A DNA stretch of 43,613 bases from a virus (IMGVR_UViG_2654587728_000013:1-43613), one strand, 5' to 3'; counted from the stretch's first letter, positions 9,154 through 33,457 are shown. Notes: generated by a model from the letters alone, not told the origin. Translations and numbers: made by a program.

Positions 9154-9525
9154 ATGGCACTGACGAAAAAACAACGTGCAGAGCTACGCATGAAGTTTGG
9201 CGGTCGCTGTGCTTACTGTGGGTGTGAGCTTGGAGATAAATGGCATGCAGACCATGTAAAGCCAGTTCTTAGGCACATGAACGGAGGCGGCATGATTCAT
9301 GCAGAAAACGACAATGAGGCAAATATGGTTCCGGCCTGTCACCCATGCAATCTGCATAAACACTGCAGTAGCCTGGAAGATTACCGGCGAATTATCGGTG
9401 ATGGTCGTCGTGAATTCCTTGTGTCCGGGAAAGGAAAAGCGCTAGTTCGTATGGGGTTGGTTGAAATGAAATCTGACCCAGTGGTGTTCTGGTTCGAAAA
9501 ATATCAAGAAGGAGCGTCAGCATGA
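9154..9525 (+). CDS. HNH endonuclease
   Basis: 123 aa; CAYCGCEL...HADHVKP...N...CHPCNLHK zinc-finger HNH motif. Confidence 0.8.
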   Translation: MALTKKQRAELRMKFGGRCAYCGCELGDKWHADHVKPVLRHMNGGGMIHAENDNEANMVPACHPCNLHKHCSSLEDYRRIIGDGRREFLVSGKGKALVRMGLVEMKSDPVVFWFEKYQEGASA

Positions 9526-10229: not shown

Positions 10230-10314
10230 TGCCGCCAGTTAAAGTGGTTGTTATTACGCTGGCTATGTGCGCTATCTGCCAGTTAATTGCTGCCTCTGGA
10301 ATGGGGATTTGGTG

Positions 10315-10653
10315 ATGGCTAAATCCGCAGCAGAGCGCAAAGCAGCGCAGCGTGCCCGCCAGGCTGAATCTGGTAACCGCAAGCTGGAATTGCAACTAGA
10401 CGAGCAGGAACTGGAGATGCTGGCGAGAAACTGCGCCGCCCGTCGCCCTGGTCGGGCGCCGTATGACATGAACGAGTACATCGCGTTGCTTATACGCCAG
10501 GATGATGCGCGGGTTCGTGGGCGCATCAAGTCAATCAGCTCTAACCGTTGCGGGAAATGTGGCGATGCGCTGCCAGTTGAGTCGTGTCCGTGTGATGGTG
10601 ATTCGGCATGCTGGGTGACGCGTGGCTGGCATGATACTAAACTAGCGGTGTGA
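10315..10653 (+). CDS. hypothetical Cys-rich protein
   Basis: ORF 10267..10653 trimmed to MAKSAAERKAAQ; C-terminal CGKCGD...CPCDGDSAC cluster; last gene before terminase. Confidence 0.45.
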   Translation: MAKSAAERKAAQRARQAESGNRKLELQLDEQELEMLARNCAARRPGRAPYDMNEYIALLIRQDDARVRGRIKSISSNRCGKCGDALPVESCPCDGDSACWVTRGWHDTKLAV

Positions 10654-10661
10654 CATGTCAC
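10650..10661. repeat. 12-bp palindrome GTGACATGTCAC (copy 1 of 3) overlapping stop codon
   Basis: Exact palindrome; same sequence at 13166..13177 and 31721..31732, each next to a GC hairpin. Confidence 0.6.
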
Positions 10662-10681: not shown

Positions 10682-10712
10682 AAGGCCGCCGACTATGGCG
10701 GCTTTGTTTTGC
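10682..10712 (+). terminator. rho-independent terminator
   Basis: AAAGGCCGCC-GACTAT-GGCGGC followed by TTTGTTTTG. Confidence 0.6.
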
Positions 10713-10720
10713 GTGTTACT

Positions 10721-10737
10721 ATTACCAAAACGGTAAT
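10721..10737. promoter_or_regulatory. operator copy ATTACC-AAAAC-GGTAAT upstream of terminase genes
   Basis: Perfect TTACC-N5-GGTAA between terminator and small terminase start. Confidence 0.5.
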
Positions 10738-10756
10738 TATTACTTCGGTGGTAACA

Positions 10757-11350
10757 ATGCCCGCAGAACCAAAAGCACCAAAACGCAAATCAACGCAGTA
10801 TAAGCCAATTACAGCGATGCAGGAGGCTTACGCGCAGGAATATACCAAATGCCCTGAGAATCAGACTCAGGCAGCGATTAACGCAGGATTTTCGCCAAAT
10901 ACGGCGGCAGTCAAGGCCAGTGTCATGATGCGTGATGAGCGTATCCAGAAACGGATCGCCGAACTGATGGAAGAGCGTAACAAGCGTTTGCGCGTCAGTG
11001 CGGACTACGTACTGCTCCGCCTGGTGGAAATTGACCAGATGGACGTGATCGATATCCTGAACGATGACGGCACACTGAAGCCTATCCGCGAGTGGCCAAA
11101 GATATGGCGTACTACACTGAGCGGTTTCGATTTGTCATCGACCATCATGAATATGAACGAGGATTCGATAGAAACAATCCTCAAAAAAATCAAATGGCCT
11201 GACAAGGTGAAGAACCTCGAGCTTATCGGTAAGCACGTCGACGTCAATGCGTTCAAAGAGCGCATGGAGGTTTCCGGCACAGTAACGATTGCCGACCGCA
11301 TGGCGAAGGCCCGCCGTCGCGTGAAAGAGCTGGATGGTGGTGAAGAATGA
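10757..11350 (+). CDS. terS: terminase small subunit
   Basis: ORF 10709..11350 trimmed to MPAEPKAPKRK; P27-like small terminase signature (AYAQEY...AAINAGFSP); immediately upstream of large subunit. Confidence 0.7.
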   Translation: MPAEPKAPKRKSTQYKPITAMQEAYAQEYTKCPENQTQAAINAGFSPNTAAVKASVMMRDERIQKRIAELMEERNKRLRVSADYVLLRLVEIDQMDVIDILNDDGTLKPIREWPKIWRTTLSGFDLSSTIMNMNEDSIETILKKIKWPDKVKNLELIGKHVDVNAFKERMEVSGTVTIADRMAKARRRVKELDGGEE

Positions 11351-12822
11351 CAGCCGCAGCCATGTCGCCGGAAGAGCAGCTTGTCGAGGATATTGCATCG
11401 TTCACATATGACCCGCTGGGCTATTCGCTGTATGCGTTTCCGTGGGGCGAAGAGGGGACAGAACTGGCGCATGCCACCGGCCCGCGAAAATGGCAGGCAG
11501 ACGCATTCCGCGAGATACGCGATCACCTGCAGAATCCAGCAACGCGTCACCAGCCGCTGATGTTGGCCCGCGCATCCGGCCACGGTATCGGTAAATCTGC
11601 GTTCATCTCGATGCTCATCAACTGGGGCATGTCTACCTGTGAAGACTGCAAGGTGGTGGTGACCGCCAACACCGACAACCAGCTGCGCACCAAAACATGG
11701 CCTGAAATCATCAAATGGTCGAACCTGGCTATCACGAAAGAGTGGTTCACCTGCACCGCCACCGCGATGTACAGCAACGATCCCGGTCACGACAAACGCT
11801 GGCGCGCTGATGCTATTCCATGGTCTGAACACAACACCGAGGCGTTCGCCGGTCTGCACAACGAACGCAAGCGCATCATCGTTGTATTCGATGAAGCGTC
11901 CAACATTGCCGATCTGGTGTGGGAAGTTGCCGAGGGTGCGCTGACGGACGAAGACACCGAAATCATCTGGGTGGCGTTCGGGAACCCTACGCGTAACACC
12001 GGGCGTTTCCGTGAATGCTTCCGCAAATACAAACACCGCTGGAAGTGCGCGCAGATAGACAGCCGCACCGTGGAAGGCACCAACAAGCAGCAGTTGCAGA
12101 AGTGGGTTGATGACTACGGCGAGGATAGCGACTTCGTGAAAGTTCGTGTACGCGGGATCTTCCCTGATGCGTCTGAACTCCAGTTTATCCCGACAGGCCT
12201 GACTGATTCCGCAATGAAGCGCGTGGTGACAGCCGGGCAGGTGGCGCACGCTCCGGTGATTATCGGTGTTGACCCGGCGTATTCCGGTGTGGATGACGCG
12301 GTGATATACCTGCGCCAGGGGCTTCACAGCAAAGTGCTATGGACCGGCAATAAGACAACCGATGATCTGATTATGGCAAAGCGTATCGCTGATTTTGAAG
12401 ACCAGTACCAGGCTGACGCTGTATTCATCGACTTCGGGTATGGTACCGGGCTGAAGTCAATCGGTGATGGCTGGGGCCGTTCCTGGCAACTGATACCTTT
12501 CGGCGGCGGCTCTACCGATCCGCAGATGCTCAACAAGCGCGGCGAGATGTTCAACAGCTGCAAAACGTGGCTGAAAATTGGTGGCGCACTGGATGACCAG
12601 GAAACGGCTGACGACCTGTCGGCGGCTGAGTACAAAGTCAGGGTGGACGGCAAGATAGTTATTGAGCCGAAGGAAGATATCAAAGAGCGGTTAGGCCGTT
12701 CTCCTGGCAAGGGTGATGCGCTGCTGCTGACGTTTGCTTTCCCGGTGTCGAAACGTATGAATATACCAGGACAGCAAAGCCAGCAGGGCAAGGCGTTGAC
12801 AGAATACGACCCCTATGCATAG
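11347..12822 (+). CDS. terL: terminase large subunit
   Basis: 491 aa; Walker A-like ASGHGIGKS, Walker B-like IIVVFDEASN; ATGA overlap with small subunit. Confidence 0.85.
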   Translation: MTAAAMSPEEQLVEDIASFTYDPLGYSLYAFPWGEEGTELAHATGPRKWQADAFREIRDHLQNPATRHQPLMLARASGHGIGKSAFISMLINWGMSTCEDCKVVVTANTDNQLRTKTWPEIIKWSNLAITKEWFTCTATAMYSNDPGHDKRWRADAIPWSEHNTEAFAGLHNERKRIIVVFDEASNIADLVWEVAEGALTDEDTEIIWVAFGNPTRNTGRFRECFRKYKHRWKCAQIDSRTVEGTNKQQLQKWVDDYGEDSDFVKVRVRGIFPDASELQFIPTGLTDSAMKRVVTAGQVAHAPVIIGVDPAYSGVDDAVIYLRQGLHSKVLWTGNKTTDDLIMAKRIADFEDQYQADAVFIDFGYGTGLKSIGDGWGRSWQLIPFGGGSTDPQMLNKRGEMFNSCKTWLKIGGALDDQETADDLSAAEYKVRVDGKIVIEPKEDIKERLGRSPGKGDALLLTFAFPVSKRMNIPGQQSQQGKALTEYDPYA

Positions 12823-13094
12823 TGAATTGATATCAGAGCTACAACCAAGGCAACTAATGCAATGATTAGTGACGCACCAGTTAGCAAAAGTGATGCGGTA
12901 TTCATCATGCGCTGATAATAGAATGCACGCATTGACTCTATTCTTTCACCGGTCTCAGCAGGGTCTTTTAATCCATTAGGGAATGTGCTTTCAAATCCTT
13001 CAAATACCTTTCTTTCAATGGCATTGTGCATGGCCATGTTCCACTCATGGGTTGAGTTCACAAAGGTATTAACAATTTTTTGTTTAATTTTCAT
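12813..13094 (-). CDS. small C-terminally membrane-anchored protein (moron)
   Basis: ORF 12813..13172 trimmed to MKIKQK so it excludes the terminator hairpin; C-terminal TM helix LLLTGASLIIALVALVVALISI; opposite strand to flanking operon. Confidence 0.45.
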   Translation of the reverse strand: MKIKQKIVNTFVNSTHEWNMAMHNAIERKVFEGFESTFPNGLKDPAETGERIESMRAFYYQRMMNTASLLLTGASLIIALVALVVALISIHYA

Positions 13095-13136
13095 GGTCCA
13101 CTCGCTGTGATAATCGAATGAGTGATTATGCCATAC

Positions 13137-13160
13137 AAAAAAGCCCGCGCATCGGCGGGC
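13137..13160 (-). terminator. rho-independent terminator (minus strand)
   Basis: GCCCGC-GCATCG-GCGGGC hairpin with T-run on minus strand, just downstream of stop of 13182..13613. Confidence 0.55.
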
Positions 13161-13165
13161 TGAAT

Positions 13166-13177
13166 GTGACATGTCAC
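13166..13177. repeat. 12-bp palindrome GTGACATGTCAC (copy 2 of 3)
   Basis: Exact copy; lies between stop of 13182..13613 and its terminator hairpin. Confidence 0.6.
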
Positions 13178-13181
13178 AGCG

Positions 13182-13613
13182 TTATATCAAATCTTTCCAT
13201 TCTACCCATTTTCCAGTTCTGCGATGGACCTCATCTCGTTTCAAAAACAGCAACTCCCTGCATCGTTCGCAGCCATCAAACTCATCGGAATTATTCTTGA
13301 AATTTTTTGCTCGGCGATACGTATAAATCCCGCAAACACAACGAGCAACATAGCGAGCACCTTTATTTTTTGCTCCTTGCGTGACAGCAAGGCCAATTAT
13401 TGTCAATCTCCCGCGCTTTCTTCCGATCATTGCTTTCACTTCTCGCCGTTGTTGCGGGTTTTTAATGTTATATACAGAAAACACTGGCAACGGCAGATCG
13501 CTGTCTCCTGTCTGGATAACTTTGTTTGGTGTCCAATCCACGCCCTTACCAACAACTCTCGCAGCAACCCGGTCAACCGGAAGGCGCTTCATGTCAAACA
13601 GGTCTTTGCTCAT
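13182..13613 (-). CDS. hypothetical basic Cys-cluster protein (moron)
   Basis: 143 aa; RBS AAGGTGAG; C-terminal CVCG...CERC cluster; opposite strand to flanking terminase/portal genes. Confidence 0.5.
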   Translation of the reverse strand: MSKDLFDMKRLPVDRVAARVVGKGVDWTPNKVIQTGDSDLPLPVFSVYNIKNPQQRREVKAMIGRKRGRLTIIGLAVTQGAKNKGARYVARCVCGIYTYRRAKNFKNNSDEFDGCERCRELLFLKRDEVHRRTGKWVEWKDLI

Positions 13614-13620
13614 AATCTCA

Positions 13621-13647
13621 CCTTAAAAAAATGCCCACCGAAGTGGG
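13621..13647 (-). terminator. intrinsic terminator on minus strand abutting the RBS of 13182..13613
   Basis: Minus strand reads GCCCAC-UUCG-GUGGGC followed by seven U, then AAGGTGAG-ATG. Confidence 0.55.
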
Positions 13648-14250
13648 CGAACTGGAAGTAAGGGTGCCTTCCATGGCAGTTACGGGTTTACAGCGCAACG
13701 TCATCGCAATGGCGTTCTGCTGTAAAAAAAGTGTCGGTACCAGCGAGGGGCAACTCGGGATGAATCTGGCACCGACAAAGTCACACAGCAATTACATTGG
13801 CACTACGGTTTACCACGGTCCTAACGTGATTCGTTTGTGGTGGCTGGTGCTGAACTCCAGCTCAGTGGCGCGGTGTTTCAATATCGTAACCGCCCGTTCC
13901 ATCCGCGTTCGATCAGTCCGTATGCTCGCTTAGAACGTTTCGCCTGCTTATCTTTTCTCAACCGTTTGACGGTCAGCCCCGCCATTAACCACAACATTGA
14001 GAGCACTGCGCCTGTATCGGTTAGCGTCATGGGATTAACCGGTCACCCCAATGCTCTCATCGTTGCATCCTCGTCTCTTCCGAGGTGTCACACCGTATCG
14101 CCACGATGGTGAATCGTCTGTCCGTGCTTACCTGACACTGGCTTGCACATTCCGGCTACCCGGCTGGGGAAGTAGCATCAATGGAACCCATCCGGACCGC
14201 TGCGGCACATGTGCCATATGCCGTACATCAACTGCGTTACATCAACATCA

Positions 14251-14267
14251 ATTACCTAAAAGGTAAT
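14251..14267. promoter_or_regulatory. operator copy ATTACC-TAAAA-GGTAAT upstream of portal operon
   Basis: Perfect TTACC-N5-GGTAA about 90 bp upstream of small ORF 14357. Confidence 0.5.
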
Positions 14268-14356
14268 ATCTGATGTTATAAGTGTCAATAGCCTACGCTA
14301 AATAAATCATATGTGGTTAAATTGGTAATAATTTAATTGCGTACGGAGCTATTGCT

Positions 14357-14563
14357 ATGTGTATCGGCAGCAAGCCATCAGTGCCAGCAGCGCCAGAAGT
14401 ACAGGCTGCGCCACAGGAGCAGGATGCAGCAGTTGTCAGTTCTCGTGACGACGAAGAACGCCGCCGCCGTGCAGCAGCAGGACGCAGTTCCACTCTGCTG
14501 ACTGGTGCTCAGGGTGACACCTCAACCGCAAACACCAGCGGTAAAACGCTGCTTGGTCAGTAA
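14357..14563 (+). CDS. small low-complexity protein preceding portal
   Basis: 68 aa; RBS GGAG 8 nt upstream; Ala/Gln/Arg-rich; could be spurious. Confidence 0.35.
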   Translation: MCIGSKPSVPAAPEVQAAPQEQDAAVVSSRDDEERRRRAAAGRSSTLLTGAQGDTSTANTSGKTLLGQ

Positions 14564-14577
14564 CGGAGTAGGCAGAG

Positions 14578-16248
14578 ATGGCGGAAACCGAAAAAGAGCG
14601 CCTGCTGAAGCAACTTGCGCAGCTGAAGAATGAGCGCACATCGTTCGAATCGCACTGGCGTGATCTGAGTGACTTCATCAATCCGCGTGGCTCCCGCTTT
14701 CTGACATCTGATGTAAACCGTGATGATCGCCGTAACACCAAGATTGTTGATCCCACTGGCTCAATGGCTCAGCGCATTCTGTCCAGCGGCATGATGTCAG
14801 GCATCACCAGTCCGGCACGACCGTGGTTCAAACTGGCAACGCCTGACCCTGACATGATGGACTATGGCCCGGTGAAAATCTGGCTGGAAGTCGTGCAGCG
14901 CCGCATGAACGAAGTGTTCAACAAATCGAATTTGTATCAGTCACTGCCTGTTATGTACGCAAGTCTGGGTACTTTCGGCACCGGCGCTATGGCTGTTCTG
15001 GAAGATGACCAGGACGTGATCCGCACAATGCCTTTCCCTATTGGCAGTTACTACCTGGCTAACAGTCCGCGCGGTAGCGTAGACACCTGCATTCGCCAGT
15101 TCTCCATGACCGTGCGCCAGATGGTGCAGGAATTCGGTCTGGATAACGTCAGTACATCCGTAAAAGGCATGTGGGAAAATGGCACGTATGAAACGTGGGT
15201 GGAGGTTAACCACTGCATCACGCCTAACGTCAACCGCGACAGCGGTAAGATGGACAGCAAGAACAAGCCTTACCGCTCTGTCTATTTCGAAACTGGCGGT
15301 GACGCTGACAAGCTGCTGCGTGAATCCGGATTTGATGAATTCCCTATTCTGGCGCCGCGCTGGGAAGTGAATGGCGAAGACGTTTACGCCTCATCCTGTC
15401 CTGGAATGCTGGCACTCGGTCAGGTTAAAGCCCTTCAGGTTGAGCAGAAGCGCAAAGCTCAGTTGATCGATAAAGCCACTAACCCGCCGATGGTTGCCCC
15501 GACATCGCTCAAGAATCAGCGGGTTTCCCTGTTGCCTGGCGATGTGACGTACCTCGACGTGTTGACCGGTCAGGATGGTTTCAAACCTGCATACCTGGTA
15601 AACCCGAATACCGCCGACCTGCTGGCTGACATTCAGGACACTAGGCAGACCATCAACAGCGCCTACTTCGTTGACCTCTTCATGATGCTGCAAAACATCA
15701 ACACCCGATCTATGCCGGTGGAAGCGGTGATCGAGATGAAGGAAGAGAAACTGCTGATGCTTGGCCCGGTGCTTGAGCGCCTGAATGACGAAGCGCTTAA
15801 CCCGCTTATCGATCGCGTGTTCTCAATCATGGCCCGCAAGAACATGTTGCCAGAACCTCCTGACGTTCTTCAGGGTATGCCGCTGCGTATCGAGTACATC
15901 TCTGTGATGGCTCAGGCTCAGAAATCTATCGGCCTCACCAGCCTGTCGCAGACAGTTGGATTTATCGGGCAACTGGCGCAGTTCAAACCTGAAGCGCTCG
16001 ACAAGCTTGATGTGGATCAGGCTATCGACGCGTTCTCTGAAATGTCAGGCGTATCGCCAACCGTCATCGTTCCGCAGGAGCAGGTACAGGGTATTCGTGA
16101 AGAGCGAGCTAAACAGGCTCAGGCGGCACAGGCAATGGCTATGGGTCAGGCGGCAGCGCAGGGGGCCAAGACTCTCAGCGAAACGCAGACCAGCGACCCG
16201 AGCGCATTAACTGCTATCGCTAATGCAGCAGGAGCACCGCAGCAATGA
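14578..16248 (+). CDS. portal protein
   Basis: 556 aa directly after terminase module; RBS GGAG; size and position typical of portal. Confidence 0.75.
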   Translation: MAETEKERLLKQLAQLKNERTSFESHWRDLSDFINPRGSRFLTSDVNRDDRRNTKIVDPTGSMAQRILSSGMMSGITSPARPWFKLATPDPDMMDYGPVKIWLEVVQRRMNEVFNKSNLYQSLPVMYASLGTFGTGAMAVLEDDQDVIRTMPFPIGSYYLANSPRGSVDTCIRQFSMTVRQMVQEFGLDNVSTSVKGMWENGTYETWVEVNHCITPNVNRDSGKMDSKNKPYRSVYFETGGDADKLLRESGFDEFPILAPRWEVNGEDVYASSCPGMLALGQVKALQVEQKRKAQLIDKATNPPMVAPTSLKNQRVSLLPGDVTYLDVLTGQDGFKPAYLVNPNTADLLADIQDTRQTINSAYFVDLFMMLQNINTRSMPVEAVIEMKEEKLLMLGPVLERLNDEALNPLIDRVFSIMARKNMLPEPPDVLQGMPLRIEYISVMAQAQKSIGLTSLSQTVGFIGQLAQFKPEALDKLDVDQAIDAFSEMSGVSPTVIVPQEQVQGIREERAKQAQAAQAMAMGQAAAQGAKTLSETQTSDPSALTAIANAAGAPQQ

Positions 16249-31427: not shown

Positions 31428-31724
31428 ATGCAAGCTATTGGTTTCATTGTTTACATAGTTGTTGGTCTTTTTCAGTTGGCTGCGATCATGGCTGGTCTTG
31501 AATCGTGGTGGGGACTGCACTGGATAGTGGCTGCACCCATTGCTTTCATCGTTAGTTATATCCCGTTGGTCGGTTCCATTGTTGGAATGGTTGGCGCTGT
31601 CGACGTATGGCGTTGGGAATGGTGGCAGGCAGGGCTTCTTTTCTTTGGCGGCCTGGTTTTTGCTATTGCGTGCGGGGGGATGTCTTCGTTCTTCGAATGG
31701 CTATCCTTCAGGAAAAGAGCGTGA
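31428..31724 (+). CDS. small three-TM membrane protein
   Basis: 98 aa; three hydrophobic helices; RBS AGGTGA; stop overlaps GTGACATGTCAC palindrome. Confidence 0.55.
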   Translation: MQAIGFIVYIVVGLFQLAAIMAGLESWWGLHWIVAAPIAFIVSYIPLVGSIVGMVGAVDVWRWEWWQAGLLFFGGLVFAIACGGMSSFFEWLSFRKRA

Positions 31725-31732
31725 CATGTCAC
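31721..31732. repeat. 12-bp palindrome GTGACATGTCAC (copy 3 of 3)
   Basis: Exact copy overlapping stop of 31428..31724; GC hairpin 25 bp downstream. Confidence 0.6.
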
Positions 31733-32499: not shown

Positions 32500-33198
32500 T
32501 CAGAACTTACCAGTCATGCTGTTGATGTACTGCGCATGAGTCTGGATATCGCGCAGGCATTTACTGGCGCCGACAATGTAGCTCATCATGGCCGCGAACT
32601 CTGCTACAGCACCTTCAACATCATGCCCGTCTGCGTCCAGTTGGCGTAGCAGGCTCATCATCAAAGAGTGCTCTGTCAGACCAAGAACACCTTCAGGTGA
32701 ATGGATGTGTTCACGGTAGTTTGGCTTGAGTGGGGCGCTGTATTCCTGTTTCTCTTCCGTCTTCATCGCTTCCAGAATGGCGGGCATGAAGCTGGCTACA
32801 ACCTTTTGCGCTTTGTCTGCCGGTGATAATTCTTCACGAACGTATCGACCAGTGCGGCGGATTTGCGGAAGAACGTCGCCAGTTACCCATTTGCGGAAAC
32901 GATAGGGGATAGTACCAGGAGTTACCGCATCGCGGCAGCGCAGGATCAGAGTGTAGAGGCCGGATTCAGAGATGATGAGGGTATTAGGGTTCCCTCGTTT
33001 TCCGTCGGTTAAAGCGACGGTATTCTTTTCGTCGTCATCCAATTTAAGCAGAGCATCACGGTTGTTTGATATACCAAGAGCATTACATACATCTAACGCA
33101 ATAAACCATGGCTCGCCGTCGATGATGATTGCACGAATATCGGCTTGCGATTCGAAAGAAAAAACTGAAGTATTTTTTTGAGTTGTCATAGTGATCAC
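32500..33198 (-). CDS. Bro-N domain antirepressor
   Basis: 232 aa; N-terminal FSFESQADIRAIIIDGEPWFIALDVCNALGI matches Bro-N; distinct C-terminal domain. Confidence 0.7.
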   Translation of the reverse strand: MITMTTQKNTSVFSFESQADIRAIIIDGEPWFIALDVCNALGISNNRDALLKLDDDEKNTVALTDGKRGNPNTLIISESGLYTLILRCRDAVTPGTIPYRFRKWVTGDVLPQIRRTGRYVREELSPADKAQKVVASFMPAILEAMKTEEKQEYSAPLKPNYREHIHSPEGVLGLTEHSLMMSLLRQLDADGHDVEGAVAEFAAMMSYIVGASKCLRDIQTHAQYINSMTGKF

Positions 33199-33457
33199 CT
33201 TTTAGTCTGGTTAATCACCACCGGAGGTTCCAATCTCGGAGGTGGTGAACTGTGCAGGGTTGGAACTACCGGCTAAAAGGACCCGGCGCACCTTTCGGTG
33301 CCCCCACACAGCCCACCATAATGCGAATGTGGCCGTGCTTAACGCATAAAAAAACCGCTTGCGCGGTGAATGCGCCTTTTAGTATCCGGGGTTCCAATCC
33401 CGGCACTGGATTTTGCCAGTGCCTGATCACTATGGCACAAGTATTTTGCGTTGTAAA

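Follow-up and report, generated by a model that had tools for sequence, protein, structure and literature searches.

Two small reverse-strand genes between the terminase and portal genes of an ε15-like prophage as probable independent cargoes of a conserved accessory slot

Overview of the locus

The viral DNA stretch IMGVR_UViG_2654587728_000013:1-43613 (43,613 nucleotides; the whole of it is referred to here as the window) is a temperate ε15-like (genus Uetakevirus) prophage genome, the minus strand of which carries two small genes, open reading frame (ORF) A and ORF B, between terminase and portal. These are explained here, with moderate confidence that extends to the functions proposed for them, as two independent single-gene cassettes held on a conserved reverse-strand scaffold. 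The affinities of ORF A point to a role in the lytic cycle or in counter-defence, and only ORF B fits a membrane factor expressed in the lysogen. The two genes, the signals around them and the borders of the accessory region are as follows.

11347-12822, plus strand: TerL, large terminase subunit, the conserved left border of the accessory region
12813-13094, minus strand: ORF B, 93 amino acids (aa), cargo of slot 1 (TerL-proximal), within an insertion of about 315 bp
13125-13133, minus strand: extended -10 promoter-like element TGGCATAAT for ORF B, directly after the terminator U-run
13136-13161, minus strand: terminator AGCCCGC-CGAUGC-GCGGGCU (hairpin 13161-13142) with U-run, 3' of the ORF A stop codon, predicted to end slot-2 transcripts
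13166-13177, no strand assigned: perfect 12-bp palindrome GTGACATGTCAC, the 3' boundary of slot-2 cargo, kept whatever the cargo
13182-13613, minus strand: ORF A, 143 aa, cargo of slot 2, a basic CxC...CxxC zinc-ribbon protein
13618-13652, minus strand: adaptor of the phage backbone, intrinsic terminator GCCCAC-UUCG-GUGGGC, A, U7, fused to the ribosome-binding site (RBS) AAGGTGA
14357-14563, plus strand: gp3-like gene, 68 aa, the conserved right border, with the portal gene next

A preliminary description of this DNA had placed two minus-strand genes between terminase and portal, namely a basic protein of 143 aa with a cysteine cluster and a C-terminally membrane-anchored protein of about 93 aa, both of lower guanine-plus-cytosine (GC) content than their surroundings and neither of a recognisable family. 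All of this was borne out. Both genes are present at that place; ORF A has a pI of 10.1 and four invariant cysteines; ORF B is hydrophobic at residues 70-88 and its homologues are nearly all 93 aa long; the GC contents are 0.454 (ORF A) and 0.387 (ORF B), as against 0.564 for TerL and 0.543 for the portal gene; and library searches gave no Pfam, NCBIfam or PADLOC family above threshold for either protein. Both are real genes, because their ratios of non-synonymous to synonymous substitution (dN/dS) fall within 0.07-0.21 and each has a family of homologues.

Cargo variety and independence of the two genes

The comparison covered 80 viral contigs with a TerL at least 95% identical to that of the window, 71 of them with a complete slot (related loci overall number more than 586). 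The distance from terL to gp3 varies from 558 to 1878 bp across the 71 complete slots, and about 20 or more unrelated families of minus-strand ORFs occupy them. All ε15-like phages carry some reverse-strand cargo here, sometimes a tRNA-Arg, and the reverse-strand gene at this place is a different one in each of ε15, PAT1, SPN9TCW, E2348/69, ETEC H10407 and ET846; the unrelated cargo proteins measure 61-305 aa. The commonest cargo is a PF13876 (N4 gp49/Sf6 gp66) protein. One relative with a 97% identical TerL carries a Tad2-like anti-Thoeris gene (L049:3524-3835, minus strand; PF11195, E 2e-23) and, within the same accessory region, a gene for a membrane protein of 91 aa. Other small genes, of families F8, F14, F30 and F34, can replace ORF B at the TerL-proximal position. 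The PADLOC matches obtained for a 272-aa sister cargo were set aside as coiled-coil noise.

Within this sample, 7 of the 80 loci contain ORF A, 4 contain ORF B and 2-3 contain both. The two occur together in the window, L007-L010, L013, L022 and L029 (L numbers denote individual related loci). ORF A is found without ORF B in PAT1, E2348/69, L024-26 and L073, and ORF B without ORF A in L011, L012, L014-16 and L035, where the upstream position holds a 99-aa gene, a 60-aa gene or none intact. In L029 ORF A is broken by a nonsense mutation and ORF B is intact. The junctions lead to the same picture: in PAT1 and E2348/69, which carry ORF A and lack ORF B, the terminator comes directly after the terL stop, with the ORF A stop codon next, and the same terminator adjoins the TerL stop in ε15, which likewise lacks ORF B. 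In the window, junction alignment places about 315 bp with ORF B exactly between the terL stop and this terminator. The two genes thus do not make up an obligate two-gene system, given the independent distribution, the L029 allele, and the terminator and putative separate promoter that lie between the genes.

The signals that bound ORF A belong to the phage rather than to the gene. The adaptor (hairpin, U7 and AAGGTGA) is found in 60 loci with the ATG of the cargo 4-8 nt further on; since the identical element precedes at least seven unrelated families of cargo protein, the terminator 5' of ORF A is part of the backbone, and so is the terminator on its 3' side, which relatives carrying other cargo share. 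Furthermore, the conservation of adaptor, palindrome and terminator across cargoes indicates that the cargo ORFs are swapped precisely between fixed flanks.

These results bear unevenly on the remainder of the preliminary description. The UUCG-loop hairpin with seven U residues before the RBS and the 3' terminator do exist, but they are not ORF A's own. The proposal of a two-gene moron insertion stands as far as variable, low-GC, opposite-strand accessory DNA in the packaging/head module is concerned, but not in its unity, as there appear to be two independent cassettes, nor as an insertion, as every relative has a cargo. The suggestion of exclusion or defence cargo fared worse: there are no PADLOC matches, the relatives of ORF A sit in early lytic operons, and a sister cargo is a Tad2-like anti-defence gene. 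The variation in presence or absence among relatives that the description had proposed to look for was found (7/80 and 4/80). Given these frequencies, the nonsense alleles that are tolerated and the lack of a structural-family match for either protein in Pfam and PHROGs, the two are not virion or packaging proteins conserved in all relatives.

ORF A, a zinc-ribbon protein of an early-region family

Translation of ORF A starts at an ATG 4 nt past the RBS AAGGTGA (13618-13624). The product contains 31 lysine and arginine residues against 16 aspartate and glutamate residues, and C92, C94, C115 and C118 are invariant across 40 diverse homologues. Its GC content at third codon positions (GC3) is 0.43, compared with 0.67 in TerL and 0.63 in the portal gene. 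ORF A is a real gene under purifying selection, with a pairwise dN/dS of 0.07-0.21 against homologous loci at a dS of up to about 1.7. It is dispensable for the phage, because nonsense and shortened alleles occur: in-frame stops stand at codon 95 in L024 (4520-4951) and at codon 58 in L029 (4835-5266), and the alleles of L007-L010 are 3 residues shorter.

ORF A falls into a family of zinc-ribbon proteins from phage early regions, which is broad and uncharacterised. Its match to phrog_18493, a group of unknown function, has E 1e-61, and a profile search retrieved at least 188 relatives of 120-150 aa throughout the Gammaproteobacteria (Enterobacteriaceae, Vibrio, Pseudomonas, Dyella and Kushneria); besides the cysteines, the family keeps an N-terminal motif (PVDRVAARV...). 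In eight loci sampled from six other phages or prophages, the relatives belong to early, nin or replication-side operons and are co-directional with them. These contexts include a nin-like region (NinB-like to YbcO), an Ead/Ea22-type early-left region, a position beside a DnaA-like gene in a Rhizobium phage and a group of small early genes in Klebsiella phage SopranoGao; an MT-A70 methyltransferase gene is adjacent in L020 and L021 and nearby in L019. No constant neighbour was found for the relatives in other phages, the remaining contexts being other small early genes.

In the AlphaFold2 model of ORF A (predicted local distance difference test, pLDDT, 77), a zinc-ribbon core of three strands is accompanied by a long helix at the C-terminus. 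Foldseek searches of the BFVD database with this model returned AP2-domain/HNH homing-endonuclease proteins (E 1e-3 to 1e-2, over 60-90 residues), and residues 52-109 match phrog_374 'HNH endonuclease' (E 8.8e-6) along a stretch that is non-catalytic. The modelled fold thus resembles the non-catalytic modules of AP2/HNH homing endonucleases. ORF A itself has no HNH motif and a single histidine, and neither it nor 40 diverse relatives match PF01844 or any other Pfam family, whereas the HNH gene of the window (9154-9525) does match PF01844. Identity with ribosomal protein bL31 was also considered and rejected, as it amounted to a marginal, non-significant match to the zinc motif in sequence profiles of the Protein Data Bank (PDB). 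The best inference is that ORF A encodes a stand-alone nucleic-acid-binding module serving lytic growth, possibly in counter-defence.

ORF B, a predicted tail-anchored membrane protein

ORF B is a genuine gene under purifying selection (dN/dS 0.11-0.18 against homologous loci), with a GC3 of 0.37 as against 0.63-0.67 in the flanks. A mechanically called 119-aa version starting at 13172 was rejected, as it crosses the terminator and nearly all homologues are 93 aa long. The protein has a single strongly hydrophobic segment (residues 70-88) with 5 residues beyond it, and its AlphaFold2 model (pLDDT 88.7) is a two-helix hairpin, the second helix of which runs on into the membrane anchor. ORF B is therefore predicted to be held in the inner membrane by a tail anchor, the C-terminal transmembrane (TM) helix at about residues 70-88, with its two-helix hairpin in the cytoplasm.

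Homologues are few, forming 61 clusters at 50% identity in a set of 1.8 billion representatives, and the closest proteins come from Salmonella enterica assemblies. The most conserved residues are W18, N19, H23, E27 and the Y59-Y60-Q-R-M stretch, all of them in the cytoplasmic hairpin or the juxtamembrane region, and this conservation points towards a specific partner bound on the cytoplasmic side of the membrane. In a few homologues there is a second TM helix as well as a further domain of about 180 aa; Pfam and PHROGs gave nothing for the longer ORF B-like proteins P0161 and P0182.

With one exception, every ORF B locus inspected is the TerL-proximal slot of an ε15-like phage. The exception is a decayed chromosomal remnant near guaA/guaB (L107:3196-4282), which has no terminase and has kept the leader of the slot and a 261-aa cargo followed by an ORF B homologue; the 261-aa membrane/coiled-coil protein belongs to phrog_4780 and is related to the 272-305-aa cargoes of the slot. 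This remnant suggests that cargo genes are kept after prophage decay.

Upstream of ORF B, one of the sequences TGGCATAAT, TGGTATTAT or TGTGATAAT is kept in homologues down to 45% aa identity, and the rest of the 5' untranslated region diverges. This suggests an expression of ORF B that is independent of the lytic programme of the phage. At the other end of the gene, the final 10 bp of TerL overlap the end of ORF B inside the palindromic CTATGCATAG, with an equal 10-bp overlap in L007-L016. As no terminator was found for ORF B and the gene overlaps terL, its transcript would run antisense into terL.

The reverse-strand scaffold and a working model

The adaptor terminator (13652-13633, minus strand) directly abuts the RBS of ORF A, and its stem occurs in two compensatory versions, GCCCAC/GTGGGC and GCCCGG/CCGGGC. 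Both terminators have their U-run on the minus strand only; as read from the sequence, plus-strand late transcription can therefore cross the region. Two further elements lie upstream of the adaptor on the minus strand.

13687-13776, minus strand: conserved leader, consisting of the hairpin and U-run of 'terminator 0' (13776-13724) followed by the hairpin UUUACAGC...GCUGUAAA (13726-13687)
13832-13986, minus strand: decayed tRNA scaffold, with the ends of the acceptor stem kept around an unrelated interior of about 150 nt

The leader is highly conserved in all relatives and the UUUACAGC...GCUGUAAA hairpin is almost invariant. The stem of terminator 0 shows compensatory variants and the leader hairpin one covarying pair, the variation being too low for a covariation test. 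Possible roles for it are those of a small RNA, an attenuator or a nut/put-like antitermination element. Where the window has the tRNA relic, an intact tRNA-Arg(UCU) is encoded on this strand in SPN9TCW and ETEC H10407, and a 113-nt pseudo-tRNA is found in E2348/69. ARAGORN detected no tRNA within the window, and the relic is not a structured RNA, judging by a fold z-score of -1.06 for the 167-nt scaffold. Rfam gave nothing for 12700-14450 apart from a sub-threshold Trp-leader match (E 0.13), which is the terminator itself.

The palindrome GTGACATGTCAC occurs three times in the window (10650-10661, 13166-13177 and 31721-31732), with an intrinsic terminator beside each copy. All three copies lie at module boundaries: the first precedes terS, the second follows terL and its cargo, and the third lies where the tail operon ends. 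By a back-of-envelope estimate about 0.01 would be expected by chance, and in most of the 80 relatives the palindrome brackets the terS-terL pair. It could be a binding site for a regulator or a recombination boundary; a binding site specific to ORF A was rejected, as the palindrome is kept in relatives without ORF A.

In the working model, the minus strand would be read in the order leader, tRNA or its relic, terminator 0, conserved hairpin, terminator-RBS adaptor, slot 2, GTGACATGTCAC, terminator, slot 1 and the end of terL. ORF A, as the slot-2 cargo, would have no promoter of its own and would be made by read-through of the shared adaptor from a start further upstream, a step suggested by the lack of a σ70-like promoter. 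Its zinc-ribbon product would bind nucleic acid and would most plausibly act in DNA or RNA transactions of lytic growth or in counter-defence. ORF B, as the slot-1 cargo, would be a separate insertion with its own extended -10 promoter and without its own terminator. Constitutively expressed, it would most plausibly bind, through its cytoplasmic hairpin, a component of the host or of an incoming phage at the inner face of the membrane, with an effect that may protect the lysogen (of the superinfection exclusion or abortive infection type) or modify the envelope. A bolder version would make ORF B a new class of tail-anchored superinfection blockers or abortive-infection triggers and, jointly, the adaptor and GTGACATGTCAC a cargo-exchange and read-through-gated platform for counter-defence genes, with ORF A as a zinc-ribbon anti-defence or host-takeover factor; as a whole this is rather unlikely.

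Weighing of the alternatives

Several results weigh against the proposed model, particularly on the side of function. The slot's role is not defined by its known occupants, as the function of PF13876 is not known and the Tad2-like gene is a lone case. Pfam, NCBIfam and PADLOC gave no match for ORF A, and none above threshold for ORF B; Foldseek against BFVD returned nothing below E 0.8 for ORF B, and PDB sequence profiles returned no match. With no informative relatives in fold or sequence, the role proposed for ORF B is a guess from its topology, promoter and position. Furthermore, the -10 element of ORF B fails the two-hexamer promoter rule, leaving its promoter a reading at the level of sequence, and a two-hexamer scan found no σ70 promoter for ORF A or for the minus-strand leader.

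The genes might nevertheless form one joint defence or exclusion cassette, for example a nucleic-acid sensor with a membrane effector, that protects the lysogen. They are adjacent, on the same strand and of low GC content, they co-occur in the window and seven other loci (L007-L010, L013, L022 and L029), and in Listeria reverse-strand genes in lytic modules can be lysogeny-expressed defence genes (TERi, bioRxiv 10.1101/2025.02.27.640495). Such a unit is nonetheless very unlikely: each gene is found without the other in several loci, a backbone terminator and a predicted separate promoter lie between them, L029 combines a nonsense allele of ORF A with an intact ORF B, neither protein has a defence family in PADLOC-DB v2 at E <= 1, and the relatives of ORF A elsewhere are early lytic genes. 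That last point would suit an explanation in which both genes are lytic-cycle accessory or counter-defence genes that aid infection rather than protect the lysogen, as would the Tad2-like anti-Thoeris gene in the same region of L049 and the intact tRNA-Arg(UCU) that relatives carry upstream on that strand, a hint that the strand is transcribed during lytic growth. This explanation is unlikely, if less so than a joint cassette, in view of the putative σ70-type extended -10 element of ORF B, which would be independent of phage regulators, and of the survival of ORF B in a decayed prophage remnant incapable of lytic growth; moreover, neither protein matches PF11195 or another named anti-defence family in Pfam or NCBIfam.

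Two narrower proposals concern one gene each. ORF A could be what is left, without present function, of a selfish homing endonuclease that entered the slot by its own mobility: it resembles HNH/AP2 homing endonucleases in their non-catalytic regions and has no HNH motif, nonsense alleles exist in L024 and L029, and a relative in Rhizobium phages is annotated as an 'HNH endonuclease'. However, a decaying remnant is hard to reconcile with strong purifying selection (dN/dS 0.07-0.21 at dS up to about 1.7); the relatives (at least 188) share an architecture of about 125-150 aa and the N-terminal motif, as expected of a stand-alone functional family rather than of decay products, and the Rhizobium 'HNH endonuclease' is itself just 153 aa long. 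Of all the alternatives, this is the least probable. For ORF B, a small toxin of the holin-like or membrane-depolarising sort (acting in abortive infection, in the manner of a type I toxin or in the timing of lysis) is brought to mind by its one very hydrophobic helix, by the longer homologues with a second TM helix and an extra domain, and by a weak match to Pfam PF16935 Hol_Tox (E 0.0025, 18.1 bits). That match lies under the cut-off of 23.3 bits and covers hydrophobic residues of the TM helix only, the conservation of the family peaks in the 65-residue cytoplasmic hairpin and not in the TM helix, an unregulated toxin would hardly be expected to have a constitutive promoter and there is no conserved antitoxin partner, all of which makes a toxin highly improbable.

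Genomic setting and neighbouring elements

The DNA around both genes matches the Salmonella phages ε15, PAT1 and SPN1S/SPN9TCW as well as many E. coli prophages, and the host of the prophage is most likely Salmonella. A tyrosine integrase is encoded within the window, and the slot region of L022, an IMG/VR isolate-derived contig, is identical to that of the window. The remaining genes of the flanks are arranged as annotated in ε15 and its relatives.

10709-11350, plus strand: terS, upstream of terL
14578-16248, plus strand: portal gene

Besides the two genes, a conserved non-coding leader of about 700 nt (13650-14356) also lies between terminase and portal. Upstream of gp3 it contains the conserved palindromes GGCACATGTGCC (14204-14215) and ATTACCTAAAAGGTAAT (14251-14267), the latter corresponding to a repressor/IHF (integration host factor) binding site annotated in the GenBank record of ε15.

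Upstream of the terminase genes is the small HNH endonuclease gene already mentioned (9154-9525), a genuine one by its PF01844 match; an HNH gene beside the terminase is a common arrangement. It is adjoined by a 128-aa ORF (10267-10653) that has a cysteine-rich C-terminus, ends in the first copy of the palindrome and gave no Pfam match. Further along the window, a C4 antisense RNA (RF01695, 77 bits; 33238-33422, minus strand) and an isrK-like RNA (RF01394, 76 bits; 32500-33198) adjoin a Bro-N domain gene; this cluster is a P1/P7-type immI-like antirepressor control module.

Implications

The locus as it stands is an ordinary phage accessory hotspot, of a kind long known in tailed phages, and leaves current understanding unchanged. 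The terminator-RBS adaptor provides a neat case of unrelated genes plugged into a common expression context. Should the functional proposals prove true, two uncharacterised small proteins would merit study, one from a zinc-ribbon family of at least 188 members without a Pfam model and the other a rare membrane protein. In addition, the ε15-like phages of Salmonella and E. coli would offer a well-delimited natural cargo bay, the more than 20 alternative genes of which (a Tad2-like one included) could be searched for functions in defence and counter-defence.

Comparison with known systems

The nearest counterparts are the reverse-strand gene between terL and gp3 of ε15 (ABK13674) and its equivalents in phiV10, SPN1S/SPN9TCW, PAT1 and E. 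coli prophages, which share the slot, the orientation, the 5' adaptor and the 3' palindrome and terminator. PAT1, 65FD, 66FD and the E2348/69 prophage carry ORF A itself (82-93% aa identity), whereas ABK13674 is an unrelated PF13876 (N4 gp49/Sf6 gp66) protein; ORF B is present in none of the deposited phage genomes.

The core of ORF A (β-rich zinc ribbon, about residues 60-130) resembles the AP2/HNH homing endonuclease modules of phrog_374 and BFVD (profile E 9e-6; fold E 1e-3 to 1e-2). Unlike these enzymes, it has no HNH or AP2 domain, carries a distinct PVDRVAARV... motif and stands alone at about 140 aa.

T4 Imm, P22 SieA and HK97 gp15 are small inner-membrane exclusion proteins that are accessory-encoded and expressed independently of the lytic programme. 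The topology and predicted promoter of ORF B would fit this group; however, ORF B is predicted to be tail-anchored with its conserved domain in the cytoplasm, and library and fold searches of ORF B gave no similarity to these proteins.

In architecture, the closest analogue found is the TERi locus of Listeria comK prophages, where terminase inhibition was shown experimentally and some genes of the locus block the packaging of invading phages (bioRxiv 10.1101/2025.02.27.640495). In both cases a small minus-strand gene lies inside a lytic module and conserved expression signals are followed by alternating, unrelated cargo in different prophages, which makes the site a hotspot. The loci differ in that they share no sequence relation, TERi lies in the early module of Gram-positive siphophages, and the conserved element there is a promoter and here a terminator-RBS adaptor; function is known there by experiment and is a proposal here.

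A classical moron is a gene with its own promoter and terminator, a concept that reportedly goes back to the work of Juhala, Hendrix and others on HK97 and lambdoid phages. The two genes resemble morons as extra genes of differing base composition that are present in some relatives and missing in others, at a fixed permissive position between essential late genes and facing the opposite way to the flanking operon. P2-like prophages likewise have morons on the opposite strand at set positions, for example neaT in P2 moron position 2 (PMC3573123). The differences are that there are two adjacent slots here instead of one, that ORF A, for which no promoter was found, has no terminator of its own and would rely on the adaptor and terminator of the backbone, and that ORF B has no terminator. 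With a putative promoter of its own, ORF B would be the more moron-like of the two and the sole one to fit the classical pattern.

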